From: an uncultured Candidatus Saccharibacteria bacterium | GTDB lineage: Bacteria > Patescibacteriota > CAZHWT01 | Direction of reading: 5' to 3' | Length of the DNA stretch: 64,000 nucleotides | NCBI GenBank assembly: GCA_964554805.1 | Contig: CAZKPX010000006.1 | Coordinates: 11,356-75,355, forward strand | Shown here: positions 4,448 through 51,570 of the stretch, one piece after another | Layout of the letters: the number at the start of each line of letters is the position of its first letter | How positions within the stretch are numbered: the first letter of the stretch is position 1 | Position numbers and translations under genes: made by a program | The notes under the pieces: generated by a model | What the model was told of the DNA's origin: nothing | The model's database searches: none | What the model saw: only the letters and a program-made list of their open reading frames with translations

Positions 4448-4704
4448 TTGAAGGGATTTATCTGGTTGTGATATTGCGTTGACCTTGATGGATAGGGTGA
4501 TCGCGGCTGGTAGAGCGCTTGTAGCGCAATAGTTGATTGCCGGTCTCTGGTGAGGCCTATGCAGCTGAGCTTAGCTATCCATAGAGGTTGACGGGAGGTA
4601 TTGTATCACAGAGTTGGGGCTATGAGTAGTCCTCGATGGCTGGTTGTTGATTTGTGTGGTAACGGTGCTATATTTGGTTTAATGGTGGGGGCTTAATCTT
4701 CTAT

Positions 4705-4744
4705 GTCATTGCGAGGAATGAAGTGACGCGGCAATCCAGGACAG
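4705..4744 (+). repeat. Repeat family A copy (GTCATTGCG...GGCAATCCAGGACAG), overlapping the GIY-YIG gene start
   Basis: The same about 40-bp unit recurs, inverted, at 5046-5089. Further copies lie at 9758-10056 (5 copies), 13499-13550, 13662-13710 and 18150-18183. Confidence 0.8.
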
Positions 4745-5025
4745 GGTATGTTTACATTTTATTCAATAAACGAAACGGAACGCTCTATACTGGGGTTACT
4801 TCGAGCTTGTCTCAACGCGTCTACCAGCATAAAAATAAGTTAGTTGCAGGTTTTAGCCAGAAGTATAGTACTGATAAGCTGGCCTATTTTGAAATCTATG
4901 ATGATATGAGCAGGGCAATAATTCGAGAGAAGCAGATTAAAGCAGGTTCGCGGGAGGATAAGTTGAGGCTGATTGAGGACAACAACCCTGACTGGATTGA
5001 TCTTTATGATTGGTTGGGGTGGTAG
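4723..5025 (+). CDS. GIY-YIG nuclease family protein (small, stand-alone)
   Basis: Motifs 'GYVYILFN...GTLYTGVTSSLSQRVYQHK' form the GIY-YIG core. The GTG start lies inside a family-A repeat. The gene is bracketed by inverted family-A copies. Confidence 0.8.
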   Translation: MTRQSRTGYVYILFNKRNGTLYTGVTSSLSQRVYQHKNKLVAGFSQKYSTDKLAYFEIYDDMSRAIIREKQIKAGSREDKLRLIEDNNPDWIDLYDWLGW

Positions 5026-5045
5026 GATTGTTGGTCATTAGTTAG

Positions 5046-5260
5046 CTGTCCTGGATTGCCGCTCCGCCAGCTGGCGGAGCGCAATGACGTTGCAGGGGGG
5101 GTGTCAGGTGTTGGGCTAAATCAAAACTCAAAAGGCAAAAGGCAAAAATTAAGGTCAAAAATAAAAAGTCGGCCACAGCTAGGCCAAACTTTTGACTTTT
5201 GCCTTTTACACTTGTTCTTGTCGCTTGTCGCTTGTCGCTTGTGTTTCGATATCCGTGTCT
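5046..5260. repeat. Composite repeat block: inverted family-A copy, family-B 'AAAGGCAAAAGG' palindrome, and (GTCGCTT)3 tandem
   Basis: Inverted family-A copy at 5046-5089. A long imperfect palindrome is centred on GGCCACAGCTAGGCC (5125-5215). Tandem tcgcttgtcgcttgtcgcttgt at 5218-5240. Confidence 0.75.
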
Positions 5261-5287
5261 CGATATCCACGACCGAAGGGAGTTGTC

Positions 5288-8200
5288 TTAGTTCCCCCAG
5301 CGAACGGCTCCGCCATTGTAGAGGACGTCGATTTGTTTTTGGGTTAGGGCGTAGTTGAAGATTTGGACGTCGTCGATTTGGCCATTCCAATAGCGACCGT
5401 TGTTATTGTTGGTTCGTGTCCCGATTTGGATGGAGGCGACATTATTCAATGTCGGGCCGGCCTGAATAGCAGATCCGTCCTTGAGGCCATTAAGATAAAT
5501 CGTAGCGGGTAGCCCTGCTCCATTTTGAACTGCGCAAGCATAGTACCATTGGTTAGTTAAAATAGTCGTTGCTCCACTCACAGATACCGCTGTGCCTTGA
5601 CTGGGAGTCATGGTCCAGCTCAGCCATCTGAGCACATTGCCCTCCACAGATAGACCCCACTCCCGCCCGCTAGAACCACTCGACCCAGCTCCTCCATAGC
5701 CATTCTGTTTGATAACGATGTTCTTCGATGCAGCGCCATTTAGCAAAACACTGTTATTGAACCAGGCACAAACGCTAAGCTGGTCACCGTAAAAGACATC
5801 TCCAATATCCACAAAGTCATCCACTCCATCAAAACTCATCGAAGCATTGCGCTTGCCCATCTTGCCTAGAGACCAGGCGGTGTTGGTGGAGTTGCAGGTG
5901 CCGGGGGTGGTTATTCCAGAGGCGCCAAGATTGAGGGTGCCGTGGAGGTGGTTGTCGGAGGCATCGTGGATGGTGGTGCCGGAGCATTCGTCCATGCGGT
6001 AGTGGGCGATGGGTTTGCCTTTGTTGTAGTCCCAGGCGACTTGGGCAGGGGTGCGGGGGTAGTTGTAGACTCTTATGTCATCTAGGCCACCATTAAAATA
6101 TGCGCTGCTCGCATATCCTATTAACATTTGCGCTGGGCCGGGCCATGGAGTGTAATTATAGGAGCTATCCGTAGCCTCATGTTGGCCGTTTACGTATAGC
6201 TTCACCTCCGAACCATTGCTGTAGGTAGCTACCACATGGGTCCATTTGCTTTCTGGGACATCGGAGCTTGATAACACATATGGCATCATAGCGCCAGCAT
6301 TGTTCTTCATGCGGAATGCTAGCTTTCCGTCATGAATCCTCATTTGATATGTTATCTGTTCCCAGCCAATAATATCTCCGTTGCCTCCAGGGTCGCGGTT
6401 TATCCATGCTTCTAAGGTGAAGTCAGCTGTAGGGGCAGGCGCTGAATTAACAGTAAATCTGTAGGTTGGTGGATGAATAGATACGGCAGTTCCATTCTTT
6501 CCAGGAATTCTCGGCACTGATCCTACTTGCGATGCTGTAAAGTTGTTACCACTAGTGTCTCTCGGATTGCCTGATTTTTCTTCAAACAGCCACTCCCCTA
6601 CTGGTTTGGCGCAGTAGTCGGTGGAGCCAGGGATGCAGTATTTGGAGTCTTGGGATTGGGAGGGCTGGGTGGCTGCGGCACCACTTCCGGAAGTGGTGGG
6701 TTCGGTTGAGGTGGCGCCTGCAATCATGGCTGAGGATTGGTTGTAGTCGATGGCGATTTGTTGAGGGGTGAGGGCTTGGTTGTAGATTTTGACTTCGTCG
6801 AGGGCTCCTATGTATGGATTAGAAGCTGCATATCCTGGATATAGAAGGCCTATGGTTGTGTTGTTTCCGTAAGTGCTTGATAAGGCGGATGGGTGAGTGT
6901 TTCTGGTGATAAGCTGTCCGTCGCGATAGAATGATATAAATATAGCCTGGGAGGTTTGCTCAAAAGTGTAGGTATAATAATGCCACTCGTTTAGGATGAG
7001 TGCTTCATTTGCAGAGTATGATGCGACCTGACTAGAATCATTGCTATAGGATACCATCATCCTATTGCTGTTACTAAGACCCGCATACCAATTCGAATGA
7101 TTTCCCATGGTAAAGAGTGTGGACGTACCGCCGACTGAAGCATCGGGTTTGGCCCAAAAAGACACTGATTTTTGAATGACTTTATAGGCTGGGACATCAC
7201 CTATCGATACATTAGCACCGTTGCCATTAAAATGTACCGCACTGCCACTAACTCCATTAACCCAAACCGTGTCTGTCATGGAGCCACTTAGTTGAGTAGC
7301 CCCAGAATCTCTAGTTATAGAGCCTTGATTTTCATCCAACTTCCAGTGGCCAACAGGGTTTAATTCATTGGGCATGCTGGATTGCATGTCGGCCAGGATT
7401 TGGCCTGGGGTGCGGGCGTAGTTGTAGATTTTGACTTCGTCTAGCTGGCCGTGTAAGTAGTAACTATTTACCGCATCATAGTGAATTCTGGATCCGAGCA
7501 CTAATGGCACAGGAGTATTGTTTTTGGTTATGCCTGGAGTGCTTGAGCCCCTCAAAACTCCATTTACATAAATTGATAAGACTGTCCCATCCCAGCTTCC
7601 GACGACATAATGCCATTGGTCGGCTGACAATGTCATGCCTGCTGATACCTGGTACGACGCAATACCACTAAAAATACTGAAACCCAGCTGACCACCTATT
7701 ATGCGTAAATTGTAATCCTTGTTGGCTCCGGCATCGTATTTGCCTATCAATACTTGATCGTCAGGGCTGCCTTGATCCAGTTTTACCCAGGTGGATACTG
7801 TGACAAGACTTGACTCGAGCATATGAGACGAAGCGGCCTCAATGTAATTGTCCTGACCATTCAACTTAGCTGATTTCCCTTTTTTGCCTTCAGCGTATTG
7901 GTGTCCTGTCCCATTCCAGGATCCTGAGTGGTTATTACCAGACTTGTCATAGGCAGTACCGCCAGAGCCTTCTTCGAAATCGTAATAGGCTACAGGCTTG
8001 GGGGCGGAGGTGTAGAGTTGGGAGATTTCTGGCTGGCTTAAATGCCTTGTATAGTAGCGGAGCTCATCTATTTCTCCATTAAATGCAGATGTATCAGCTT
8101 TCTTGCTACCAATCTTCATATGAGTTGGTGAGGTTGCTGGGCAAGTGGAGCCGTCGGGCAGAGCTATGGTTGAGGTAAGTTGTCCATTTAAATATCCTTT

Positions 8201-10108
8201 TAGGACGCGCTCTTTAAAGTTGTAGGTAAAGACTATATGATTCCATTGATTTATGATTGGTAGAACCGAAGGGCTTAGCGCAGGGTCGCTCGAACACAAA
8301 TGCCCCCACTGCCTAGTCCCAGCTTCCCTAGCTCCAAATCTACCTTCGTTACCTCCATTATTTGGTGAAAATATAGTGCCCCAAGCTGAAGTTCCATCAG
8401 GATATATCCAAGCGCTATAAGCTCTCTCTTGGTTTTCTGCTAGACTGACACTTGAATTAATGCGGACATGCTGATCGATCATTGAGTTGAAACTTCCAGC
8501 ACTGCCATATTTCCCTACATCTATACTTGCCCCATCAACTGCTTGGCCATTGTTATTATTTCCGCTACTATCTTTAACTTCCCCTATTGTGCCGTCCCAG
8601 CTGGGTTCATCCATTTTCCAGTGGCCGACTAAGCCGTTCGATAGGTTGCCTTGCTGGGCTTGCATGGATTGGATGCCTTGGATGTAGTCTTGTTGGATTT
8701 GTTGTTGGGTGCGGGGGTGGTTGTAGAGTTTGGCTTGGTCTAGGAAGCCTTGGTAGAAGGAGTTGAAGTTGGTGCCGGTGCAGTCGTTAAAGGAGCCTAG
8801 GCTGGAGCAGGTGTCGATGGTGGACAGGCCGGAGTAAGAGCCGGTGGCGACTTGTTGGCCGTTGGCGTAGGCATGGTAGGTGCCGTTGTCCCAGGTTAAG
8901 GCTAGGTGGTACCAGGTGCTGCGGGTGAGGTGAAAGTTGGTGTTGACGGCGGCGGCGGTGCCTAGGCGGATGCCCAGGTTGCCGGAGGAGCCTAGGCGGA
9001 GCAGGTAGATGCGGTGATCGTTGCGGTTGGCCATGACCATGTATTCGTCGCTGCCGCCGGTGGCTCGGGTGGGTTTGGCCCAGATGGAGATGGTGCCGGT
9101 TTGGGCGGAAATGTGGGTAGAATCGGCGCCGATGGCGTCGTCGGTGCCATCAAAGTAGAGGCATTTACCAGCCACACACATGTCCTCGGTTTGCCAGGTG
9201 GGGGTGTTGTGGAAGGTGCCGTGGTTGGCGGTGGTGGTGGAGTCATGGGCGGTGGTGCCGTGGCCTTCGTCCAATTTCCAGTAGGCAATGGGGCCGGTGG
9301 ATTGTTCTTGGGAGCCGATGTTGCCGGTGGTGGTGTCGGCTAGGTTGTTGAATGGTTGGGTGGCGCTGGCTTGGGGTGCTTGGGGATTGCCATAATACAT
9401 ATAAATAGTGGAAGCGCCGGCGGGGAGATTGGTGAAAAGGATTTGGATTTGGGTGGTGCCGGTGCCGCAGCCGGAGGCGAGATGATAAGGGATGAGTTGG
9501 CCAGAGAGGCTAACAAAACGGAGGTCAGAGCAGTCGTTGTTGAAGGTGGTGGTGCCGGCGGTGTCTAGGGTTAGTTCGAGGTAGACATTGGTTTGGGGAG
9601 TGACGGAGGTAATGTCGACCGGGGCGCGGTAGCGGTAGTCTTCGTTCCACCAATCATTGGAGGCTTGAGCTGCTTGAGGGGTAATGAAGCCGAGGATGGG
9701 GAGGGCTAGGCCGAGGATGAGCGAGGTAATGATGAGGAGGGCTGTTCCCCTCTTAAGGTCATTGCGAGGAGTGAAGCGACGTGGCAATCCACCCCTCTCG
9801 TCATTGCGAGGAGTGAAGCGACGTGGCAATCCAGGCAGGAATGATGACCTAGTAGGGGTAGTAGTCTGTCCTGGATTGCCACTCCGCCGGTTGGCAGATC
9901 GCAATGACGGGAGAGCGGGGGCTGTGGTTTTTTGTATGTCATTGCGAGGAGGCAAGGCCGACGTGGCAATCCAGGAGAGAGGGTGTTTGTGTTTAGGGTT
10001 GGTTGTTTGTCCTGGATTGCTGCTCTGCCTGCTGGCGGATCGCAATGACGGGGAGTTAAAGCCTGCAACCCAAAGCCTAAAACCTTGCCTCTTTGCCATC
10101 TTCATCAA
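5288..10108 (-). CDS. giant secreted/surface protein with at least 6 LamG (concanavalin A-like lectin) modules
   Basis: Recurring LamG C-terminal signatures: 'LDEVKIYNYARTPGQI', 'LDEVKIYNQALTPQQI', 'LDDIRVYNYPRTPAQV', 'IDDVQIFNYALTQKQI'. A signal/anchor-like segment 'TALLIITSLILGLALPILGFITPQAAQA' is present. The first about 110 codons are built from family-A repeats, so the true start is uncertain. A TTG near 9772 would give a classical signal peptide. Confidence 0.75.
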   Translation of the reverse strand: MMKMAKRQGFRLWVAGFNSPSLRSASRQSSNPGQTTNPKHKHPLSWIATSALPPRNDIQKTTAPALPSLRSANRRSGNPGQTTTPTRSSFLPGLPRRFTPRNDERGGLPRRFTPRNDLKRGTALLIITSLILGLALPILGFITPQAAQASNDWWNEDYRYRAPVDITSVTPQTNVYLELTLDTAGTTTFNNDCSDLRFVSLSGQLIPYHLASGCGTGTTQIQILFTNLPAGASTIYMYYGNPQAPQASATQPFNNLADTTTGNIGSQEQSTGPIAYWKLDEGHGTTAHDSTTTANHGTFHNTPTWQTEDMCVAGKCLYFDGTDDAIGADSTHISAQTGTISIWAKPTRATGGSDEYMVMANRNDHRIYLLRLGSSGNLGIRLGTAAAVNTNFHLTRSTWYHLALTWDNGTYHAYANGQQVATGSYSGLSTIDTCSSLGSFNDCTGTNFNSFYQGFLDQAKLYNHPRTQQQIQQDYIQGIQSMQAQQGNLSNGLVGHWKMDEPSWDGTIGEVKDSSGNNNNGQAVDGASIDVGKYGSAGSFNSMIDQHVRINSSVSLAENQERAYSAWIYPDGTSAWGTIFSPNNGGNEGRFGAREAGTRQWGHLCSSDPALSPSVLPIINQWNHIVFTYNFKERVLKGYLNGQLTSTIALPDGSTCPATSPTHMKIGSKKADTSAFNGEIDELRYYTRHLSQPEISQLYTSAPKPVAYYDFEEGSGGTAYDKSGNNHSGSWNGTGHQYAEGKKGKSAKLNGQDNYIEAASSHMLESSLVTVSTWVKLDQGSPDDQVLIGKYDAGANKDYNLRIIGGQLGFSIFSGIASYQVSAGMTLSADQWHYVVGSWDGTVLSIYVNGVLRGSSTPGITKNNTPVPLVLGSRIHYDAVNSYYLHGQLDEVKIYNYARTPGQILADMQSSMPNELNPVGHWKLDENQGSITRDSGATQLSGSMTDTVWVNGVSGSAVHFNGNGANVSIGDVPAYKVIQKSVSFWAKPDASVGGTSTLFTMGNHSNWYAGLSNSNRMMVSYSNDSSQVASYSANEALILNEWHYYTYTFEQTSQAIFISFYRDGQLITRNTHPSALSSTYGNNTTIGLLYPGYAASNPYIGALDEVKIYNQALTPQQIAIDYNQSSAMIAGATSTEPTTSGSGAAATQPSQSQDSKYCIPGSTDYCAKPVGEWLFEEKSGNPRDTSGNNFTASQVGSVPRIPGKNGTAVSIHPPTYRFTVNSAPAPTADFTLEAWINRDPGGNGDIIGWEQITYQMRIHDGKLAFRMKNNAGAMMPYVLSSSDVPESKWTHVVATYSNGSEVKLYVNGQHEATDSSYNYTPWPGPAQMLIGYASSAYFNGGLDDIRVYNYPRTPAQVAWDYNKGKPIAHYRMDECSGTTIHDASDNHLHGTLNLGASGITTPGTCNSTNTAWSLGKMGKRNASMSFDGVDDFVDIGDVFYGDQLSVCAWFNNSVLLNGAASKNIVIKQNGYGGAGSSGSSGREWGLSVEGNVLRWLSWTMTPSQGTAVSVSGATTILTNQWYYACAVQNGAGLPATIYLNGLKDGSAIQAGPTLNNVASIQIGTRTNNNNGRYWNGQIDDVQIFNYALTQKQIDVLYNGGAVRWGN
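9755..10060. repeat. cluster of 5 family-A repeat copies (mixed orientation) inside the 5' end of the giant LamG gene
   Basis: Copies at 9758-9793, 9800-9838, 9878-9925 (inverted), 9938-9985 and 10009-10056 (inverted). They encode the 'GLPRRFTPRND' peptide repeats in the ORF. Confidence 0.8.
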
Positions 10109-13100
10109 TCCACCCTCGCCACCACTATCCAGTTGGTTCCATTGCTGACTACAGTTAGGCTATGATACTGGCCGGCTAGAGATTCGCTGGCTTGACCGCT
10201 GATAGTTTGGGCAGAGGTGGTGGCGATATTGACGGTGTTGGAGGCGACGGCTTTGGCGATAGTGTATTGGCGTCCGGCTTTGTCGACTGCGCTAGGTAGG
10301 GTGATAGTTACGCTGCCGCCGGTGGTATCAACATTGACTACGCCGTGGCTGTTATTGAGAGTAGTGTTGGTGGATAGGCTGGTGTAGGGTTGAGTAGCAG
10401 AGCGGCCGCTAGTTTGGATGTCGGCGTAGGCGTCGGTGTTTTCGGAGACCTTGAGGGTGTTGGAGGTAGAGTCAAAGTAGGTGCGAGCAGTTCCGGCAGT
10501 CGATAGGCCAGGCGCAGTAGCACCGGTCCATGCAAGATAGTTGCCAATTGTTTTGTTTAGTATAGTTTGAGTTTGGCCATTGGTTGTTACAGTGTGTCGA
10601 CTAGAATTGCTGGTGAAATATAAATTTACTCCGTCGTATTCAATAGCACCTGGTTCGGGGGTAGCCAGGCTGGTTCCAGCGGTTAGCTTAAGGGGTGCAG
10701 TGCCTGCAGCGGCAGTACCGGCTCTAATGTGTAATCCGGCGGTGGGGGTGTAGATTCCGCCTAGGCCGAGTCTGGTGTTGTTGGCGGTGGAGATGATGCC
10801 GGAATCGAGCATAATGGCGCCATTGTTGTAGGTGGACAGGGTTAGGTCAGATGAGTTGTAGCTCTCCCCTGCCTGAATACGCAAGGGTCCGGCCGAGGTG
10901 ATGTTGCCTGAGGAGGAGTTGTCGAAACGTAGGTCGTGGGCGATGGACATATCTCCAGCAGCCATGAAAGCGACGGGGACGTTGGCGGTGATTTGGGATT
11001 GAGTGACTTTGAAGACGGATAGGCCGTCGGTCATCAGATTCATCAGGCTGCCGGCAGTACCGTTGGGGCCGATGTTGAGGCTGAAGAGATCACCGGTCAT
11101 GGTGGTAGCGGAGCCTGGGGTCCAGGATAGGCCAACTAGACCACCGGTGGTGAGGGCGGTGGAGGTGGAGGAGATGTTGAGGCCGCGGCCGGTAGTGAGA
11201 GAGTTGGCGGTGATCTGAGTTCCATTTTGGGTTGTCCCAGAAGATGCAATATCTAGTCGGGCACCAGGGGTGGTGGTTCCTAGGCCCAAGCGATTCAAAG
11301 AGTTATCCCAGAAGAAGTCATTATTGGAGGTTTGAGTGCTACCACCACTCCATACTACAACTCGCCCCACAAGGCCAGTTCCCGTGGCGTTGTTAGCGGG
11401 GACACAGCTATTCCAGGAAGCAGCTGCACCTGTAGTGGCAGTTAAGCATTGGCCTGTAGTGCCGGCTCCGAGTTGAGAGACGACGCCGGAGTCGTTGGTG
11501 TAGAGCAGGCCGCCGGTGGTGGTGTAGTTGGATAGAGTTGTAGCGCCGGTGGCCCGGAAGGTTCCAGCGACATCTAATTTGGCGCCCGGACTTGCATCTG
11601 CTGTTCCAATGCCAACATTTCCACTGGATGTCTCAAAAAGCACCCGAGTATTACCACTGCCATTTCTAAAGTAAAAATTACCGCCAGATTCCAGCCAGAA
11701 TTGAGAGCTCGAGGAAATAGTTAGGAATGCAGTCGAAGTGAGTTGAGACCCCCCATGGCCTGTTAATCGTAGCCCCTTGCCTGGGCCAGCAGTAAGCCAT
11801 GTGTAGGATACATCGTAGTTAATTGATAAAGCGTTTTCTGAGTTTTCTGCGTCATAAATTTGAAGAGCGCCACTTGGATTATCGGTACCTATTCCGACAT
11901 TTCCTTGGTCGCTGATAATCATGGATAGGGCTGGGCCTGCGCCGCCGGTCGTGACCTGCTTAGTGTAGAATCGCAAATCTCCCATCGAATTGCTGCCTGT
12001 TCGCTGATGAGTAATGGCTGCGCCTATGTTATTATCGGTGTTGGTTACTGAAAAACCGAGTCCGGCAGCCAATCCATTCTGAGCATAGGGGTGGCGCAGT
12101 ATTTGCAGATAATTGATGGATTGACTTAAGTCTGCACTTGCGTTGCGTGGAGCCACTACCTCAAGTTGAGCCTGCGGGGTAGTGTCGCCGATGCCAATGC
12201 GCCCCAATGCGGAGACTGTGAGCCGCTCTTGATTTCCAGTCTTGAGTCCAAAGTCATGATGACTAATGTTGCCAACCGAAGAAAAGAAGACGGAGCCGTC
12301 ATATTCCTGAAATATTCCTGTATCTACCCCATATGTGGTGTGGGTTAGGCGTATGCCGCTGAGGTCTGGTCCAGACAGGTGGAGCATCCGTCCCAAAATT
12401 GCTGAACCGCCAATCCTTGCTCCTGCTCCAGAAGGGGTCGTTGTTCCAATTCCTAAACTCTGGCTAACATTATCCCAAAACAACCCACTATTTGAAGACT
12501 GACTATCTGCTCCAGTAAAGAAGGCAATCTGCCCGTTAGCTCCAGTGCCGGTGATGGCATCGGTAGCAGCGCAAGCTCCCCAGTTGGGGGTAGTGCTGGT
12601 GGATTTGAGACATTGACCGGTGATACCTACTCCTAGTTGGGCTAGTTGTCCTGAGGCATTGGTGTAGAGGAGGCCGCCGTTGGTGGTGAATTGAGTTAAG
12701 GCTAATGGTCCGCCGATGGTTACTTTGCTAGCATAGCTAATGTTGCCGGTGGCTATAGTCCAGGGCGAGTATTTATTGGTGTTGCCCTGGGTCAAATTAT
12801 CAGTCGTAAAGCCAAGTAGATTAGTTAAAAAGCCGGCGTCGTTGGTGATGAGTGAGGTTTTGAGCCCTGATTGGGTAACTGAGCCAACGATAGTGCCGCT
12901 GGTGATGGCCAGGGTCAGGGTGGAAGTGCTTAGAGGTTTGAGATCTTGGAGCGAATTTGGAATAACGTTGCTATTTTGACTGGTGTCATTCTGGGCTGGG
13001 GGACTTGATGGTAAGTTGCTTAGGATCCAAGCCTTATCTCTGTCAGTTAGCAGTTTAGAGTTGGCAGGAATTTTCCCTTCGGCTATTAGATCCTCATAAG

Positions 13101-13344
13101 CTGAGAAGCGGTCGGAGACCATAGTGGAAACCATGGTGCCAACATTTAGATACTGTAGGCCGGATTTTCCCAGTAGCGAAGACATATCAACCGCACTGCT
13201 CTGGGCCAGTACTTGCTCAAAGTTGTCTTGGGTAACGGGTTGATGTTGCCCCTGTAGGCCTAGGATGACTTGCCTAGCAGGGTTGAAAAAGATGAAAGCT
13301 AGAACGACGCATGTGACTCCAGCAATCAGATAAATGGGTTTCAT
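10105..13344 (-). CDS. giant Thr/Gly/Ser-rich surface protein (fibre-like repeats), N-terminal TM anchor
   Basis: 1079 aa with N-terminal hydrophobic segment 'IYLIAGVTCVVLAFIFF'. Repeated 'TGQCL..T....W..C' and 'GLGTTTP' modules. The stop overlaps the downstream start as ATGA (translational coupling). Confidence 0.7.
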   Translation of the reverse strand: MKPIYLIAGVTCVVLAFIFFNPARQVILGLQGQHQPVTQDNFEQVLAQSSAVDMSSLLGKSGLQYLNVGTMVSTMVSDRFSAYEDLIAEGKIPANSKLLTDRDKAWILSNLPSSPPAQNDTSQNSNVIPNSLQDLKPLSTSTLTLAITSGTIVGSVTQSGLKTSLITNDAGFLTNLLGFTTDNLTQGNTNKYSPWTIATGNISYASKVTIGGPLALTQFTTNGGLLYTNASGQLAQLGVGITGQCLKSTSTTPNWGACAATDAITGTGANGQIAFFTGADSQSSNSGLFWDNVSQSLGIGTTTPSGAGARIGGSAILGRMLHLSGPDLSGIRLTHTTYGVDTGIFQEYDGSVFFSSVGNISHHDFGLKTGNQERLTVSALGRIGIGDTTPQAQLEVVAPRNASADLSQSINYLQILRHPYAQNGLAAGLGFSVTNTDNNIGAAITHQRTGSNSMGDLRFYTKQVTTGGAGPALSMIISDQGNVGIGTDNPSGALQIYDAENSENALSINYDVSYTWLTAGPGKGLRLTGHGGSQLTSTAFLTISSSSQFWLESGGNFYFRNGSGNTRVLFETSSGNVGIGTADASPGAKLDVAGTFRATGATTLSNYTTTGGLLYTNDSGVVSQLGAGTTGQCLTATTGAAASWNSCVPANNATGTGLVGRVVVWSGGSTQTSNNDFFWDNSLNRLGLGTTTPGARLDIASSGTTQNGTQITANSLTTGRGLNISSTSTALTTGGLVGLSWTPGSATTMTGDLFSLNIGPNGTAGSLMNLMTDGLSVFKVTQSQITANVPVAFMAAGDMSIAHDLRFDNSSSGNITSAGPLRIQAGESYNSSDLTLSTYNNGAIMLDSGIISTANNTRLGLGGIYTPTAGLHIRAGTAAAGTAPLKLTAGTSLATPEPGAIEYDGVNLYFTSNSSRHTVTTNGQTQTILNKTIGNYLAWTGATAPGLSTAGTARTYFDSTSNTLKVSENTDAYADIQTSGRSATQPYTSLSTNTTLNNSHGVVNVDTTGGSVTITLPSAVDKAGRQYTIAKAVASNTVNIATTSAQTISGQASESLAGQYHSLTVVSNGTNWIVVARVD

Positions 13345-13498: not shown

Positions 13499-13710
13499 TC
13501 TTCTCGTCATTGCGAGGATCCGCCAGCTGGCGGAGACGTGGCAATCTGGTTCGCTTGATGAGGGGTTGGAAAGGCAAAGGTCGAAAGGCAAAGGGCAAAA
13601 ATTAAAGTTAAAAATCAAAGTCCAAGGTTGCAAGTAGTGCCAAGTTAGCCAGTATTCGTCATTGCGAGGATCCGCCAGCTGGCGGAGACGTGGCAATCTA
13701 GGAGGATTAT
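13499..13710. repeat. Composite intergenic repeat: two direct family-A copies flanking a family-B (AAAGGCAAAGG) element
   Basis: 13499-13550 and 13662-13710 are near-identical 'tcgtcattgcgaggatccgccagctggcggagacgtggcaatct' copies. 13565-13615 carries the 'gaaaggcaaaggtcgaaaggcaaagggcaaaaatt' element. Confidence 0.8.
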
Positions 13711-15463: not shown

Positions 15464-15927
15464 AGACGATTCCTGATGTTTTCAAATGGACCACAATTAT
15501 TTCTGGCCGTAGTGCAAGGGATATTATAGCAAATGGAGACAAGAGACGAGCGAGGGAAGGATATAAGGCAAAAGGCAAAGGGCAAAAGGCAAAAATTTGC
15601 ATAAAAACTATACGGAGAGATGACGCAATAAGTGAGTGGCCTGAATGAACGATGCGGTTCGTTCATTCAGGCTTGTCTCTTGCCGTCATCATTGACGGGG
15701 GTCTCCTTCATGGTTGATCAGACTTTGGCAGCCTTGGTTCGACGCGAGGCCTTCTTTTTCGCGCCTTCCATTTGGCGAATACGGTTCTCAATTTGTTTGA
15801 GATAGCGACTCTTCCCTCTGGAGTGGAGCGCTTTAAGCTGCTGCAGACTTAGATGATGAATGCTGCAGTCGTTAGCCATGGTGTCTCCTCCTGGCTTGTA
15901 TGTCTGCTGCCTGATCCGCTTCAGGCA

Positions 15928-16261: not shown

Positions 16262-16405
16262 TAAGTCAAAGGTCAAAAGTCAAAAGGCAAAAATGCAAAT
16301 CTGCAGGCAAGCTGCGAATAAATCCGAGCAAAAGTCAAAAGTTCGGCCTAGTTGTTTTTAACTTATTATTTTTAGCCTTAATTTTTGCCTTTTGCCTTTT
16401 GCTTT
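16262..16405. repeat. family-B palindromic element (AGTCAAAGGTCAAAAGTCAAAAGGCAAAAAT ... inverted partner)
   Basis: Long imperfect inverted repeat made of AAAGGCAAAAG / CTTTTGCCTTT units. Related copies at 5125-5215, 13565-13615 and 15560-15600. Confidence 0.75.
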
Positions 16406-16532
16406 TTGACTTAACAACTAACCCAGCCCTTACTAGTTCCACGCATCAGGGTGGGTATGCTATAATCCTTCCGTCTAGTTTTGAGATTTGCTTTGATATG
16501 CAGGTTAAAACTACGCACTAACAAATTTATCG

Positions 16533-17810: not shown

Positions 17811-18327
17811 AGATGTGACTTACTGTTGGTGCGTAAGTTGAAATAATAGTAACTAATTGGATGCTTGGTTGTCAAACCGTCCGCCGTTGGCGGAACCAGG
17901 CGGTTTGGATGCGAGGGTTGCTTGCCGCCGCAAGCTATTTATGACTTTTCCTGCTTGGCTGGAGTGCGTATGCAATCTATTGGGCAAGATTGGATGCCAT
18001 CTTTGTTTGCTAAGCAAACAATGTTTCACTTTCCAACTGAGTTGGACTGGCATGCAAACCGTCCGCGGTTGGCGGAACCAGGCGGTTTGGATATTGGGGC
18101 TTTTCGTCTCGGAGCACTCGTGCTTGCACCGTTTCTCTCGACAAGCTAGTGCTGGATTGCCGCGTCGCTCCTCCTCGCAATGACGGGATGGCTAGACTGG
18201 TGTCTGTTGCTGGTGTACGTATTGCAGTATGGGAATGCTTGGCTGTATACTGGTGATACCTGGTATATGGTTGGGATGTTCTAGGGAGTTCGCCAAATTG
18301 ACCCAAAGGGGGTGAACGAACAGTCTT

Positions 18328-18726: not shown

Positions 18727-21700
18727 CTACTCTACCCAGCTGAGAGTGGAGCTGCCCAGAGCTGGTTTTAGGATCTCCAGATATTTGGGCTGGAAGCGGA
18801 TGGTTTCTCCGGGGTTATTGTTGCCGGTACCAAGGTCTCTCTGAAGGCCGGTGGTTGCTCCGTTAAGGAAGTTTCCAGAGTTGCTAGTCGGCTGATTGCC
18901 AGCCAGACCTATCAGTGAGCCATTAATGATTAGAGGCTGGCCGCCAGCTTGAGTAACGAAGCTGCCACCGAAGATATAAGCGCCGTCCAGTCGAGTGACT
19001 GCTGAGCCGATGGTGATGTTGCCACTGACGATGAAGACTATGCCGGAGGAAGATGTGTCGTCGGTGATATTTTGATTAATAGCTAGATTGCCTTGGACAA
19101 AGTAGATTATTTGACTGTTAGGGCAGTTGGCATTGGTGATGGCGGTGGAGGCAACTGAGCGGGTCATAGTGTTGTTGGCGGCATCCGGAGGAATAATGAG
19201 GAAGGCTCTGCTTACTTGAGGGACGGGATTGGGGCTGCATGAGCTGAGGATATGGTTGCTTGTTGTGGCTGTGGCAGTGTCGATAGTGGTAATTGTGCCC
19301 AGATTACCGCGAACTGTTTGGAGGAGGCCTTGATAGGCTGGGCTGGTAATAGCTGGTTGATAGACAGGCACTTTCCATTGAGAGGTGGCTGCCAGCTTGT
19401 TGCTAGGGAGGTTTAGGCCCTGGGCATTGGCGGAATTGGCACTGACTAAGCCGGCCACGCTTTTGAAGAAGTATTGGTTGAATGGAATATTGAAGCTTAT
19501 TCCTCCGTTGGAGTGAACGTCGCCGGTGTTTCGGCTGGCGGCATTGCTGTCGATTTGAATCCATTTGGCGTAGCGGACTTCAAAGGTGGTGTAGGCAACT
19601 GGATTGTTGGCGCTACCGGCGGTTGATCGTGAGCCGACACAGATGGTGTAGATGCCTTGTGGAGTGCTGTCTGAAGCAGCTAGGAAAGCGACTAAGCTGG
19701 TTCGGCTGCTAGCTGGGAAAGTCATGGTGCCGACCAGAGGAGCTGCACTATTATCCAGATCGGCAGTTATGCCACTGGCCCCCCCTGAGCCACTCGTAAC
19801 GGCTGGGCTGTTGCCATTGTACGGTGCGCACAGAGCGGCTGAGTTGCTGCCGGGGTGAATGCCGACTACTGAGATGGTAATTGGATCGTTGCCCCAGGTA
19901 GCTTGCGATGGCAGGTAGTTCATATTGATGTCCTGAGTGGCTGAGTCACCGCCTGGTTCAGCGACGGTGCCGCTTGGAAGGGTGGTGTTGAATGATTGGC
20001 AGCTAGGGGTGGTAAATGGAGCGCCGGTTTGGAGATCGGGGCTGTAGCCATTGGTGGTGTTAGCCTGTAGAGTCCAGGTGTAATTGGTATTGCCGACTAA
20101 GCCGGCGGCGTTAGCGTTGGAGACGTTGCCAGCTAGGTCGAGAGTTTGAACTGGGTTGCCACCGGTAGAGATAATTAATCGATAACCCGTGATGTTGCCG
20201 CTACCGGCCGTCCAGGTGAAGCTAGCTGAGGTGCAGGTTGGCGTGGTGGCTGGGTTGAGTACGGGTTGGCGAATAACTGAGTAGTTGAAGCTACGCTGGT
20301 TGTCTGCAGGGTAGGTGCTTTCAGTGGTGCTGTTTTGGAAGTTGGCAAAGACTCGAGCGCTATAGTCAGCAGCATTGCCTTCCTGCCAGAAACTTGGCGC
20401 ACCTACAACGCTATTTGGCGAAGTTGAATTTTGATTGTTGGCCCAGTTAGCGCCACTCCATGAGCTGTAGGTGCGAGTTTGACTGGCATTAAATATGCCG
20501 TGGTTGAGAATGTAGAATGGAATATCGGACATTTCGTTGGCATTGACTTGGCTAGGACGGTTCTTATAGATAGCAGTTTTTGTGCCGGCCGGAAGAGTCG
20601 AAGGCCCGTTGTTCTGCATGGAGGCATAGAAATAGATATTCTCGTTGACGTTGAAGACAGACCGAGATGCCCCAGCATTGTTGGCTAGATTGAAGGCGGT
20701 GGCGACTAGGTTGGGTGGGTTGGCGATGGTAATGCTGCCTAGACTAATGTTGTCGGTGGCGATGACGGCGTTGAAGAGGTTGTAAAACCTAATACGCTGA
20801 TCGGGCGCAGGGACCGAGGAGTTAATGCTTTGGTTTCCGGTTGGTGCTCCTGATCGCACTCGAGCTGTGAATCGAAGACAATATTCAGCAGTGCTGTGAC
20901 TGTAGGGGACATTGGCATTAATCGTGTCGTTGCTGCCCGAAAGGGTTACGTTAGCTGTCCCAATTTGAGTATTTGTACTGCAATCGTACACACCAGCGAC
21001 GGCAGTGATGCTGTTATTGCCGAAGACGCCGGTATTGAGTTGGTCTGTGACTGTGAAGTGAGTCGGGGTGATAGTATTGCGGATAAAATTTAAGGCAGAG
21101 GTCATATCGGGCTCTTTTGTAGCAATGCGACCTGAGTTAATTGCAGCAGTGATTGTATAGTCTATAAAATCTATACCAGTAACATCATCTGTATTTGAAT
21201 TGGGATAGTCTAAAATATAACCGCAAGGAGATTGATACCTATTGGCTACTGGCGGGGTCATACCAAATGAACCATCAAGCTCATTGCCAAGTTGGTCGCC
21301 TCCGGGTATCAGCATTAATTGATTGAATCTCTGGTTTGCGATGTTTAATGAGCCAGGCACTCGTGACGTACTCCCTCCGGTAAATACGCACTGACCATCC
21401 CAAGCGGTTAACCCATAACGTCGGCTACCAAAGGCAGGATAGTTGTGAACACCGTCAGTTAGGGCAACGAGAAATCTGCCACTACTTGTGCCTGTACTAA
21501 ATAAGTTATTTCCATCTCTCAGACCTCTGTGCAAATCTGAGTATGCTCCTCCAACAGAGGCCTTTACGCCGTTTGTGGCATTTGTTCCTATGGCGTTTTT
21601 TAAATTTGTTATGTCAGTATTACCAGAAATGGTTGTAAGAGGAAAATGTGTTTCAGGGAAGTATCCAATGTCATCGTACAAATTTTCATTATAGCCGAAA

Positions 21701-22056
21701 GAAACAATACCAACTTTAACTAAGCCTGGGTAATTGATCAATGAATCTGCAAAACTGCGCATCGGTACTTTCATATTAGTGATTTCAGTTGCCATTGAAT
21801 ATGAGGCATCTACCACAAACACGACTTCAAATGGTGGGAGGTTAATGTTAGTCGGCTTAGGAATTCGTATTTCTAAATTGGCAGTTTGGCCGGGAGTGTA
21901 TGAGGTGGCACTGCTTGTGACAACTTTGTTAGCAGCAGCCTGGATAGCCTGAGGGCTTGAGCTAAGGATGATGGTGATGGCAATTAGTGATAGTGTGCTT
22001 AGACGGAAAGCCTTTTTAGAAATGTTCTTTATCTGACGACTGGAAAGTTTTGACAT
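18727..22056 (-). CDS. giant surface protein with N-terminal vWA (MIDAS) domain; paralog of 24965-27499
   Basis: Signal/TM N-terminus. vWA signature 'VVFVVDASYSMATEI...VGIVSFG'. The C-terminal about 250 aa resemble those of the 844-aa paralog ('TRLDGAYIFGGSF...GLQRDLGTGNNNPGETIRFQPKYL'). Confidence 0.8.
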   Translation of the reverse strand: MSKLSSRQIKNISKKAFRLSTLSLIAITIILSSSPQAIQAAANKVVTSSATSYTPGQTANLEIRIPKPTNINLPPFEVVFVVDASYSMATEITNMKVPMRSFADSLINYPGLVKVGIVSFGYNENLYDDIGYFPETHFPLTTISGNTDITNLKNAIGTNATNGVKASVGGAYSDLHRGLRDGNNLFSTGTSSGRFLVALTDGVHNYPAFGSRRYGLTAWDGQCVFTGGSTSRVPGSLNIANQRFNQLMLIPGGDQLGNELDGSFGMTPPVANRYQSPCGYILDYPNSNTDDVTGIDFIDYTITAAINSGRIATKEPDMTSALNFIRNTITPTHFTVTDQLNTGVFGNNSITAVAGVYDCSTNTQIGTANVTLSGSNDTINANVPYSHSTAEYCLRFTARVRSGAPTGNQSINSSVPAPDQRIRFYNLFNAVIATDNISLGSITIANPPNLVATAFNLANNAGASRSVFNVNENIYFYASMQNNGPSTLPAGTKTAIYKNRPSQVNANEMSDIPFYILNHGIFNASQTRTYSSWSGANWANNQNSTSPNSVVGAPSFWQEGNAADYSARVFANFQNSTTESTYPADNQRSFNYSVIRQPVLNPATTPTCTSASFTWTAGSGNITGYRLIISTGGNPVQTLDLAGNVSNANAAGLVGNTNYTWTLQANTTNGYSPDLQTGAPFTTPSCQSFNTTLPSGTVAEPGGDSATQDINMNYLPSQATWGNDPITISVVGIHPGSNSAALCAPYNGNSPAVTSGSGGASGITADLDNSAAPLVGTMTFPASSRTSLVAFLAASDSTPQGIYTICVGSRSTAGSANNPVAYTTFEVRYAKWIQIDSNAASRNTGDVHSNGGISFNIPFNQYFFKSVAGLVSANSANAQGLNLPSNKLAATSQWKVPVYQPAITSPAYQGLLQTVRGNLGTITTIDTATATTSNHILSSCSPNPVPQVSRAFLIIPPDAANNTMTRSVASTAITNANCPNSQIIYFVQGNLAINQNITDDTSSSGIVFIVSGNITIGSAVTRLDGAYIFGGSFVTQAGGQPLIINGSLIGLAGNQPTSNSGNFLNGATTGLQRDLGTGNNNPGETIRFQPKYLEILKPALGSSTLSWVE

Positions 22057-22836: not shown

Positions 22837-23186
22837 TGAGCTATAAGACATCGCGACTATGAGGTCTATGCACGTTTCTTTTAATATGCTATAGTCCTCA
22901 TGACGCAAAGTCTTTTGTCGTACCTTGACAGGCGCATATAGTGTAAATCTTAAACTTAGTCCCCTACTCTTTTCTTTGATAAGCAGCAGAACTAGGCCTA
23001 GCTACCAGTGGTAGTTGGTCTGGCTCTGCTGTGGAATCAAGGACTGTAGGGAATCCAGTCTTGAATCGCAGGAGGTCGAAGAGCGACCTTGGGATCAATT
23101 GCCAACTCAATGGTATTGATCACTCCCAGCGGAAACTCAGGCTGGGAGTTCCAGTCAATATTCCATTCAAGGAAAGGAGACTGGCA

Positions 23187-24680
23187 ATGTCCCAGTCTAA
23201 GAAGTTCGTCATCGTTCGTTCGCTTGTCGTGTTTGTGATGCTGATGGTCTCGCTCGCCGGGACTCAATCGGCACTCGCTGGTCCGTCGTCTTCGATTGAT
23301 CCGTGGGTCATGATGGCCCAGGATCAGGAGGAAGGCTCGACAGAAGCGCCCGCCGAGACCGTCGCGGTCGCGGATGAGCCGACGGCACCAGAAGTGGTGC
23401 AGCCACAGAATGTTGTCGTCAATGAGCCTGCTGTTCCGGAAACGGTGCAGCAGGAACCGATCGTCGAGCAGCCCCCTGCGCCGCAAGCGGTGCAGCAGGA
23501 GCCGATCATTGTCGACGAAACGACTGAAGTCGAAACCGAGGAGACCGTCATGGTCTCCGAAGAATCGACCGAGGTTGTCACTGAGGAGGCGACGGAAGTC
23601 GTCACCGAAGATCCGACGGAAACGCCGGTGACGGAAGAACCTGGTGGCGCGTGCGATTTCAGCGCTTGCGTTGAGATTGTCAGCACTGACTGCGAAGCAG
23701 GCACGCTGACGTTCTCTGTCGAAGTCCGTGTCGGTGGAGCCGCGAACGTCGAAGCTTACGCTTACGATGCTCGCGGATATGATGAAAGCGCAATCGTGTC
23801 TTTCACAATGAGCACTGGGTCTGACACGGCAACCCTTCCTAATGGTCCTTTCGAAGGATCCACAACCTTTGCAGTTGATGCTGGCTTCAGCCATGCGGAA
23901 ACTACTGTGGTGTGCGGGGGGACTTCAACCGAAGAACCTACGGAAGAACCGACGGAAACGCCGGTTTCAGAGGAGCTCGTCATCGATGCTTCTCTGCAGG
24001 GGTGCACCGGGATCAACGTCGCGCTTTCCGGCGCGGTTGAAGGCCAGGTCTACACGGTCAAGGTCTTCGTCTCCGAGGTTCTCATTGCCAAGTTCGACTA
24101 CAGTTCTCCTCAGCTGGTTGAGCATATTCTGCTCACCGGTGATACGGTGACTGTCAAGGTCGAAGGCGCCGAAAAGTGGACGGAGCCTGTTGAAGACTGT
24201 GATGCTCCAACCGAGACCCCGGATCCGACAGAGGAGCCGACGGAAGAGCCAACCGAGGAGCCGGTAACCCCGGAGCCCACGGAGGAACCAACCGAGGAGC
24301 CGACTGAAGAACCGACCGAAACGCCGGGCCCGACGGAGGAACCGACGGAAACGCCGGATCCAACCGAGGCTCCAACCGAGGAACCGGTTGAAGAACCGAC
24401 CACCACTCCTGGTGGCGGGTCGACAGACGGTCCGACCCAGCCTGGCTCCGGCCAGACTGGCGGCGGTATCACCGACACCGGGAGCGGAACGGCCTCCAAG
24501 TCGACGACTTCGTCGCCGACGACGGAAACGGTCGACCCAGTCACTGGCTTGCCGGTGTCTGGGTCTGGACCGTTCCTCGTCACTTCGAGTGGCCTGGCGA
24601 TCTTGGCCGGGATCATGGCGATGGTTTTTTGGTGGCATGCGGATTTCTTCCGTTCTGCCTGCAACTATCGCCGGAGGTAA
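23187..24680 (+). CDS. secreted Pro/Thr/Glu-repeat surface protein with C-terminal sorting-signal-like tail (LPVSG + hydrophobic + RRR)
   Basis: RBS AGGAGA precedes the ATG. Signal peptide 'VFVMLMVSLAGTQSALA'. (PTEE)n low-complexity linker. Ends with 'GLPVSGSGPFLVTSSGLAILAGIMAMVFWW...RRR'. Markedly GC-rich relative to its neighbours. Confidence 0.7.
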   Translation: MSQSKKFVIVRSLVVFVMLMVSLAGTQSALAGPSSSIDPWVMMAQDQEEGSTEAPAETVAVADEPTAPEVVQPQNVVVNEPAVPETVQQEPIVEQPPAPQAVQQEPIIVDETTEVETEETVMVSEESTEVVTEEATEVVTEDPTETPVTEEPGGACDFSACVEIVSTDCEAGTLTFSVEVRVGGAANVEAYAYDARGYDESAIVSFTMSTGSDTATLPNGPFEGSTTFAVDAGFSHAETTVVCGGTSTEEPTEEPTETPVSEELVIDASLQGCTGINVALSGAVEGQVYTVKVFVSEVLIAKFDYSSPQLVEHILLTGDTVTVKVEGAEKWTEPVEDCDAPTETPDPTEEPTEEPTEEPVTPEPTEEPTEEPTEEPTETPGPTEEPTETPDPTEAPTEEPVEEPTTTPGGGSTDGPTQPGSGQTGGGITDTGSGTASKSTTSSPTTETVDPVTGLPVSGSGPFLVTSSGLAILAGIMAMVFWWHADFFRSACNYRRR

Positions 24681-27977: not shown

Positions 27978-28096
27978 ACAATGGTTGGTCGATTTGATCG
28001 ATGTATAGATTTATTGTAGCTTGCCTGTATTAGGTTGGCAAGCCGGTGATGGTTGCTTGTAGGAATTGAGCGGGATGTTTGGGTATAATTGGGGTA

Positions 28097-51454: not shown

Positions 51455-51570
51455 TCTCCCCTCCCCTTGACCGTTTCATCTCAGATAGTATGATTAGCAG
51501 TCTATGGAAAATGAGCACCATTGACCTGGCAAGCAGAGGTGTTCTGAGATGCACGCCCGGAAGGGGTGAA
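51455..51570 (+). ncRNA. family-D structured repeat element, candidate small RNA with its own -35/-10 (copy 1 of about 5)
   Basis: TTGACC-16-TATGAT precedes 'tagcagtctatggaaaatgagcaccattgacctggcaagcagaggtgttctgagatgcacgcccggaaggggtg' (GGAA-capped hairpin). Related copies at 54455-54580, 56600-56720, 62210-62330 and a degenerate copy at 57180-57300. Coding potential is poor. Confidence 0.4.

Follow-up and report, generated by a model that had tools for sequence, protein, structure and literature searches.

In Neisseria meningitidis, SsnA, a 94-aa single-domain GIY-YIG protein (CDD cd10448), binds an oriented hairpin repeat, the NTS (CGTCATTCCCGCGMAVGCGGGAATCYRG), as single-stranded DNA (ssDNA) only and on one strand only, and cuts a few nt upstream of the repeat, leaving double-stranded DNA (dsDNA) uncut (PMC11893778). 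Chenal et al. (2025, Nat Commun) have reported that mutations of Y6, Y17 and E64 abolished SsnA cleavage, that the three bases before the NTS palindrome govern cleavage and the C after it governs binding, that NTS repeats cluster beside surface-protein genes, and that deletion of ssnA raises transformation about five-fold, solely for NTS-bearing DNA (PMC11893778). According to the same authors, Ssn homologues number thousands and the majority are flanked by "Ssn-related motifs" (SRM); ssDNA-specific one-strand cleavage was demonstrated for four Neisseria and Wolbachia enzymes only, and the likeness of the repeat-gene-repeat arrangement to an insertion sequence was raised as a hypothesis (PMC11893778). 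In a 2026 preprint, repeats associated with SsnA already serve as a class of natural repeats for benchmarking. Earlier, Di Nocera et al. (BMC Genomics 2013) had described the CGTC-tagged palindromic repeats, a group of repetitive extragenic palindromic (REP) sequences defined by an unpaired CGTC or TGTC tag, a stem starting with AT and a CCA tail, occurring mostly as head-to-head dimers and often as heterodimers, which include dRS3 of Neisseria and RPE-4 and RPE-6 of Rickettsia and which "lack a dedicated transposase" (PMC3733652). Here a locus of an uncultured Candidatus Saccharibacteria bacterium is compared with these systems; it lies in a 64,000-nt stretch of contig CAZKPX010000006.1 (assembly GCA_964554805.1), called the window below, and consists of a small GIY-YIG nuclease gene flanked by inverted copies of a dispersed repeat of about 40 bp, designated family A.

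From its sequence, and with a probability of about 0.85, this locus is an Ssn/SRM pair, that is, an Ssn-family nuclease together with its cognate SRM hairpin, a variant of the CGTC-tagged REPs. A previous sequence-only reading of the same stretch had seen in it a homing-type nuclease gene bracketed by repeats, with the geometry of a nuclease-mobilised family of miniature inverted-repeat transposable elements (MITEs). The open reading frame (ORF) at 4723-5025 on the plus strand encodes a protein of 100 aa with a single domain, matched by Pfam GIY-YIG (PF01541) at residues 8-78 with E 2.4e-16 and by no second domain or family. The ssnA product of Neisseria aligns with it at 51% identity over 86 aa, gap-free, with E 3e-32 in BLASTP, the value below which Chenal et al. 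recognise an Ssn homologue being E < 1e-10 (PMC11893778). In the window protein, Y11, Y22 and E69 occupy the aligned positions of Y6, Y17 and E64 in N. meningitidis SsnA, and the 16 homologues compared all keep these residues unchanged. Searching N. gonorrhoeae with the window protein (tblastn) returned a single locus, with E 4e-22, in each of two PLSDB records of 2.17 Mb, and the gonococcal gene is flanked by canonical NTS units, CGTCATTCCCGC..GCGGGAATCC. The motifs CGTCATT and AATCCAG are common to the window units and the Neisseria repeat.

The earlier designation as a homing-type enzyme is replaced by that of a single-domain Ssn-family enzyme, whose Neisseria member cleaves ssDNA next to a specific hairpin and modulates natural transformation (PMC11893778). 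The homing endonuclease profile TIGR01453 reaches 18.6 bits, against a cutoff of 56, and covers residues 9-42 only. Rfam gave no intron matches in the whole window at the gathering threshold or in 4450-5300 at E <= 1. The setting is that of an ordinary bacterial chromosome, with tRNA-Val 258 nt upstream; genes for an MFS transporter, trigger factor and an HrpA-like helicase are present, as are several for secreted-type proteins of very large size. No other contig and no named cluster member turned up when the window protein was looked up exactly.

Two further observations concern the genes compared here. The gonococcal locus that was read (NZ_CP119142.1, 1881119-1882576) belongs to one of two 2.17-Mb N. 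gonorrhoeae chromosomes that PLSDB lists as plasmids, and its ssnA frame appears broken near the 5' end (ATG CAC GGT TTA TAT TTT AGC AAG CCA ACG TAA), the conserved frame being shifted by one base. The window also encodes a second GIY-YIG protein of 482 aa (28079-29527, plus strand), in which an RNase_T exonuclease domain is fused to GIY-YIG; no family-A unit lies near it, which makes the repeat association specific to the Ssn-type gene.

The repeats are tightly interwoven with the nuclease gene. As the sequence-only reading had noticed, the gene begins inside one unit and is followed by an inverted one. The forward unit (4704-4744) is 41 nt long, TGTCATTGCGAGGAATGAAGTGACGCGGCAATCCAGGACAG, and contains GTG 4723, the sole canonical in-frame start 5' of the GIY motif, preceded at a distance of 5 nt by the Shine-Dalgarno-like GAGGA, also within the unit. 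Besides GAGGA and the GTG, the segment 4715-4745 contains the seven codons with which the nuclease begins (MTRQSRT); similarly, MTKQSRK is the N-terminus of many homologues from other phyla (P0002-P0042), coded there by the equivalent part of their own unit. The inverted unit (5046-5089, minus strand) begins 20 nt past the stop codon. The two are alike at their ends only (CGTCATTGCG ... GGCAATCCAGGACAG) and represent two subtypes: A1, in the forward unit, reads TGTC-ATTGC-GAGGAATGAAGTGACGCG-GCAAT-CCAGGACAG, and A2, in the inverted unit, reads CGTCATTGCG-CTCCGCCAG-CTGGCGGAG-CGGCAAT-CCAGGACAG on the minus strand, its interior being a long hairpin, CTCCGCCAGCTGGCGGAG, that A1 does not have. As ssDNA, the A2 unit folds to -15.1 kcal/mol (z-score -4.2, DNA fold), A2 units forming a 9-bp inner stem with a bulged G. 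The 5-bp ATTGC/GCAAT is the only stem constant to all units, within a frame (C/T)GTC-AT TGC...GCA AT-CCA(G).

A census of the window with the pattern TCATTGCG-N(8-30)-CAATCC found eight matches, against 0.02 expected from shuffled sequence, and two further units with the tail AATCT bring the total to ten, the pair at the gene plus eight, where about ten more had been claimed. All ten read GTC-ATTGC...GCAAT-C and lie within 4.7-18.2 kb, with none in the remaining 46 kb; six are forward and four reverse, and the GC skew is positive throughout, so that strand bias is uninformative. Five units fall in the first 350 nt of the LamG ORF called mechanically at 5288-10108 (minus strand), namely a solo A1 unit at 9758-9790 on the plus strand and two gene-less doublets. 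Doublet 1 (9799-9909) joins a forward A1 (9799-9832) to an inverted A2 (9873-9909) across a 40-nt spacer, and doublet 2 (9937-10050) a forward A1-like unit (9937-9972) to an inverted A2 (10014-10050) across 41 nt. Both pair A1 with A2 exactly as the nuclease flanks do, including the inner CCAGGACAG/CTGTCCTGG extension; no convincing coding remnant was found when the doublet spacers were aligned to the interior of the nuclease gene, a result that fits doublets as deletion derivatives and as empty targets alike. The AATCT units at 13505-13547 and 13657-13699 (both plus strand), identical direct copies left and right of another element, family B, have the A1 frame with an internal TCCGCCAGCTGGCGGA hairpin and are the exception to the head-to-head A1+A2 heterodimers, of which there are two in addition to the gene-flanking pair. 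The last, a solo unit of a short A1 form at 18154-18185 (minus strand), stands downstream of a VWA/fn3 ORF (18727-22056, minus strand). The five copies at LamG, the two around family B at 13.5 kb and the one at 18.15 kb had all been seen by the sequence-only reading.

The association of gene and repeat extends across phyla. A word-indexed database returned 3898 homologues of the window protein at E <= 1e-3, the nearest about 70% identical and from very different bacteria, and in many entries the protein is extended at its N- or C-terminus by a stretch translated from the unit in either frame (MTKQSRK.., MTKQSRKGYVYILF, RHCEERSDEAIQ, MSLRGAKRRSNPE, ..DCHGAKAPRNDG, ...DLDCHGAKAPRNDG). Flanks were read at 80 loci from species-representative genomes, with 53-69% identity to the window protein, among them Gastranaerophilales, Clostridia, Alpha-, Gamma- and Deltaproteobacteria, Cyanobacteria, Patescibacteria, Omnitrophota, Spirochaetes, Bacteroidia and Ignavibacteria, and family-A-type units are found almost everywhere. 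By a simple pattern, forward unit, gene and inverted unit are immediately adjacent at 40 of the 80 loci, and within 150 nt at 49 of 81 when the window is counted; most of the modules measure 355-400 bp, and the termini read YGTCATTGCGAG...CTCGCAATGACR. The inverted-copy geometry is thus no local accident, and the refuting condition that the sequence-only reading had named, GIY-YIG genes elsewhere free of repeats, is contradicted. At 16 of the 80 loci, and in Neisseria, an inverted instead of a forward unit lies directly upstream of the gene, and many Alphaproteobacteria, one gut species and Neisseria show a second layout in which the gene stands between doublets. A core pattern that left the flanking GTC and C positions unconstrained picked out 172 units at the 80 loci; in these, GTC precedes the palindrome in 69-73% and C follows it in 70%.

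Several results weigh against the identification as an Ssn/SRM pair or narrow it. The published SRM search motif, HGTCWYN(0-2)YYVSBRHN(0-5)WNVSBRGN(0-2)RNCYNB (PMC11893778), has no match in the window and none near the gene at any of the 80 loci, against six in a 1.46-kb Neisseria control. It misses the units because their stem bases differ (TGCGAG vs TCCCGC); the window units are therefore a divergent variant of the SRM repeat, and their recognition by the window protein would follow by analogy with Neisseria. The motif is a search heuristic, not a definition of the family. In addition, under standard DNA parameters the fold of the A1 units is no stronger than that of shuffled sequence (z about 0), and they form no stable inner stem. 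The PDB holds no Ssn structure, the nearest entry being UPF0213 BH0048 (E 0.016), and the window protein is only weakly similar to it and hence not a member of that neighbouring family. Finally, the count of ten units holds for the 64-kb window. In full-text literature searches, the DNA string of the repeat and its peptide translations retrieved primers only, and searches for GIY-YIG with MITE, inverted repeats or UPF0213 gave nothing relevant.

If the window protein acts as SsnA of N. meningitidis does, it would be an ssDNA-specific nuclease that binds the unit only when this is single-stranded, as at replication forks, in incoming transforming DNA or in recombination intermediates. Only the strand reading CGTC-ATTGC...GCAAT-C would be bound, and this strand would be cut a few nt before its CGTC tag, on the 5' side. 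The cleavable strand would be the top one at the left end of the module and the bottom one at the right end, which places both predicted cuts just outside the module, about 385 bp in length. Further substrates would be the eight remaining units, the two gene-less doublets among them. The pair may serve to restrict ssDNA that bears the repeats and to control recombination, as the Neisseria system does, or to spread the module and its repeats, or both.

Several other explanations bear on this locus. That ordinary REP-like or terminator hairpins came to lie near a GIY-YIG gene by chance has next to no credit: palindromic repeats are indeed frequent in bacterial intergenic regions and the A1 units are weak hairpins, but the excess of units over the shuffled expectation (8 vs 0.02), the same unit beside homologous genes in most of the 80 loci and in many phyla, and a start codon placed within the unit in the window and in many homologues all stand against it, as does an association already in print (PMC11893778). 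The unit-flanked homologues refute this candidate in practice. Homing into doublets is improbable as well. It would make the gene-less doublets empty targets, nicked or broken and repaired from the gene-bearing copy by gene conversion with the units as homology arms, and it would fit the single A1+A2 pairing, inner extension included, that doublets and gene flanks share. GIY-YIG enzymes do include classical homing endonucleases. The window, however, has one gene copy to two doublets, its protein is without the DNA-binding domain of homing enzymes and far below the TIGR01453 cutoff, many loci place the gene between doublets and not inside one, and the model leaves the spread of the doublets themselves unexplained; moreover, SsnA leaves dsDNA uncut (PMC11893778). 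A domesticated system serving the host, in which nuclease and repeats restrict or shape ssDNA recombination around given genes and the repeats are kept for that function, can be entertained as a possibility somewhat short of even. The rise in transformation after ssnA deletion, confined to NTS-bearing DNA, and the NTS clusters adjoining Neisseria surface-protein genes (PMC11893778) favour it, and so does a gene that is single-copy and at a fixed locus across strains. In one gut species it lies between two giant FliD/Glug genes, and all ten window units bracket three large genes of secreted type, the LamG ORF, the ORF at 10105-13344 and the VWA/fn3 ORF, much as NTS repeats do at Neisseria surface-protein genes; this bracketing is an impression from one 64-kb window and not a test. 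The likeness of gene and repeats across phyla is, on the other hand, hard to explain by vertical inheritance alone.

A further candidate is an active transposon or MITE family, with unit-ssn-inverted-unit as the autonomous form and doublets and solo units as non-autonomous derivatives mobilised by the nuclease, which by analogy with IS200/IS605 and REPIN-RAYT may move via single-stranded intermediates without target-site duplication. Such a reading concerns the biological role of the pair and is compatible with the Ssn/SRM identification; it, too, is somewhat short of even odds. The terminal inverted repeats are conserved and delimit a discrete module of about 385 bp, nucleotide similarity across phyla extends no more than about 50 nt beyond the gene on either side, and protein identity of 55-70% among Cyanobacteria, Firmicutes, Proteobacteria, Patescibacteria and others suggests horizontal spread. 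In two Clostridia (L025 and L028) a 389-bp module is 89% identical between unrelated flanks, the homology running from CCGTCATTGCG to CGCAATGACG, which are the outer ends of the units. Doublets without a gene share the A1+A2 pairing of the nuclease flanks, some genomes have two or tandem gene copies (L001, L011, L021/L031, L017/L030), and both predicted cuts would fall just beyond the module ends. The module lies inside a longer palindrome in 6 of 49 cases, against 1.2 expected and a permutation maximum of 5 (n=500), which hints at hairpin targets. The target-site duplications that the sequence-only reading had proposed to look for are, however, absent: for k = 2-6 and all offsets the counts match permuted flanks (2-mers at offset 0, 1 vs 1.08 expected). 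Elements that move as ssDNA also leave no duplication, so that this absence does not exclude mobility. No dispersed empty or filled site was found in the strain comparisons either, the gene of two abundant gut species occupying one fixed locus in 24 of 24 contigs read for each; the polymorphisms seen, a 141-bp indel between direct units and the copy number of a tandem 126-bp doublet, are both explained by recombination between repeats. Where an inverted unit stands upstream, as in the 16 loci and Neisseria, the gene is outside the doublet, and the cuts, being on opposite strands, are unlike same-strand IS200/IS605 excision. To our knowledge, no GIY-YIG enzyme joins strands or carries out strand transfer. 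For Ssn, hydrolytic ssDNA cleavage alone is documented (PMC11893778), and no follow-up showing Ssn mobility was found in the literature. Of the nuclease-mobilised MITE put forward by the sequence-only reading, the geometry, the gene-less doublets and a module shared between unrelated flanks have held up, the duplications have not, and no dispersed empty site was found in the strains compared; it is a plausible idea that had already been proposed in print, neither new nor demonstrated.

Some details of the flanks were recorded alongside. At L015, L016, L038, L057 and two more of the 49 loci, the flanks outside the module are themselves an inverted repeat, of up to 19 of 20 bases at L057, and either the module lies within a longer palindrome or its terminal repeats are extended; at L015 these flanks are units of another SRM variant. 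In strains from gut metagenomes (L092-L097, P0013), two giant FliD/Glug genes, convergent to each other, enclose ssn, and tandem 126-bp doublets adjoin it on both sides, their copy number varying by strain from 1 to 3 upstream and from 1 to at least 4 downstream; in L093 a hairpin GCCAC/GTGGC has become GTCAC/GTGAC, a compensatory pair. Strains of another group (L081-L090, P0075) differ by the presence or absence of 141 bp upstream of ssn (about 2750-2940 in L083), between direct copies of an inverted-unit variant (CTGGATTCTTTCGGAC..CCTCAGAATGAC), which is consistent with recombination between repeats.

Other elements lie close to the pair. The palindrome and the tandem repeat that had been reported downstream of the gene are present: the first, AAAGGCAAAAGG, at 5117-5202 between the convergent ssn (plus) and LamG (minus) genes, is a palindrome of family B in which A-rich and T-rich arms enclose a GC hairpin, with a z-score of -2.15 in the DNA fold and a terminator-like match on the minus strand; the second, (CTTGTCG) x3.7, lies at 5217-5242. 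Family B, an element of about 86 nt with arms CAAAAGGCAAAAGGCAAAAATT..., has further copies at 13565-13619, 15564-15613 and 16262-16311 and, inverted, at 16328-16413; two copies adjoin family-A units and the remainder lie between two tRNA-Leu genes. It is read as a separate dispersed terminator-like element, resembling a bidirectional terminator, outside the Ssn/SRM pair. Rfam, with the thresholds given above, matched tRNAs and, at chance level, family B only, so that a known structured RNA or ribozyme is unsupported; a hammerhead-like reading of GA...GAA was dropped because its core does not fit. The sequence-only reading had taken the 5' end of the LamG gene to be built from repeats. The five units are there, and the ORF probably runs on over them, its start having been called too far upstream. 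In the region 9680-10108 (minus strand), an in-frame TTG at 9787, preceded by GAGGGG, lies inside the unit 9758-9790, and a start there would yield MPRRFTPRNDLKRG, a hydrophobic stretch and AQA, a signal-peptide-like N-terminus that is partly encoded by the repeat. Farther along, 42.7-62.3 kb contains a second, unrelated set of dense repeat families (45774, 45932, 46971, 48090, 50224, 54274, 62042), a 118-nt family at 51456, 54465, 56604 and 62215, direct and inverted repeats of 70-290 nt and a hairpin GGCTCACCAAAACACCCCGATTGTCTTAGCGACGGTCGGGGTGTTTTTG with conserved upstream sequence, which together suggest a block of repeated gene cassettes. At 23563-24412, within the ORF 23031-24680, a degenerate coding repeat phased at 12 nt and rich in ACCGAGGAGCCGACGGAAGA forms a linker rich in Pro, Thr and Glu.

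The locus adds an example to a system that was published in 2025; it is not a new kind. For annotation, its sequence argues for naming the ORF as an ssDNA nuclease of the Ssn family, with the 40-bp units as its putative cognate repeats. It goes beyond the published description in three respects. A widespread repeat variant, ATTGCGAG...GAAGCAAT, is wholly missed by the published motif, and since it escapes that motif the reported fraction of ssn genes with repeats is probably an underestimate. In this subfamily the gene lies within a doublet, and the putative recognition hairpin itself encodes its translation start. Sharp boundaries at the outer repeat ends, in unrelated contexts, are the kind of evidence that the idea of Ssn mobility needs, and they make that hypothesis testable. 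New Ssn-hairpin pairs may moreover be of practical interest as sequence-specific ssDNA cutters. It is a bolder and rather doubtful proposal that the modules of about 385 bp are autonomous members of an unrecognised class of prokaryotic mobile elements that a GIY-YIG single-strand nuclease drives, with the gene-less doublets and the solo units as its non-autonomous MITEs. Were it true, the CGTC-tagged REP superfamily would have found its "missing transposase", and the proposal would also explain near-identical termini (CGTCATTGCGAG...) together with proteins 55-70% identical from Patescibacteria and Cyanobacteria to Firmicutes and Proteobacteria, and the window variant, whose unit encodes ribosome-binding site, start codon and first residues, would be the most compact form.

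Among known systems, the closest is Ssn/NTS of Neisseria, which shares with the window a single-domain GIY-YIG protein of about 94-100 aa with identical catalytic residues, oriented hairpins with CGTCATT...AATCCAG, and dispersed copies that cluster near large surface-type genes. It differs in the stem, which in the window is ATTGC-GAG...GA(A/C)G-GCAAT with an inner hairpin that is variable or absent and in Neisseria is ATTCCCGCG...GCGGGAAT, and in the layout, since the window gene lies inside a doublet and starts in the forward unit, whereas the Neisseria gene lies between doublets. The CGTC-tagged REPs have in common with the window units the CGTC/TGTC tag, the AT-starting stem, the CCA-type tail, the head-to-head (hetero)dimers and the occurrence of some copies inside ORFs or longer palindromes, the nesting of dimers in palindromes being echoed by the six modules of 49; they have a perfect 8-9-bp stem and a 4-5-nt loop (PMC3733652), in contrast to the 5-bp perfect stem, G/A-rich mismatches and variable insert of the window units. 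REPIN-RAYT systems likewise place a small nuclease gene between its own hairpins, with inverted doublets, often a single copy at a fixed locus and ssDNA hairpin recognition, but they use a Y1 HUH transposase with a tyrosine covalent intermediate instead of GIY-YIG hydrolysis, an unrelated fold and a GTAG instead of a CGTC tag, and RAYTs are mostly vertical where the window-type module looks horizontally spread. IS200/IS605 elements resemble it in subterminal hairpins recognised as ssDNA, cleavage away from the hairpin and the absence of target-site duplication; they differ in that no inverted repeats form their ends, in that the two cuts fall on a single strand and in that TnpA joins strands, none of which is known for Ssn. 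The I-TevI-type homing endonucleases share the GIY-YIG catalytic fold and a tie to selfish DNA, but they have a separate DNA-binding domain, reside in an intron, an intein or a free-standing phage context, cut dsDNA at an allele without the intron or gene, and have no recognition repeats of their own beside them, whereas the nuclease of the window stands in a chromosomal context between repeats that are probably its own.

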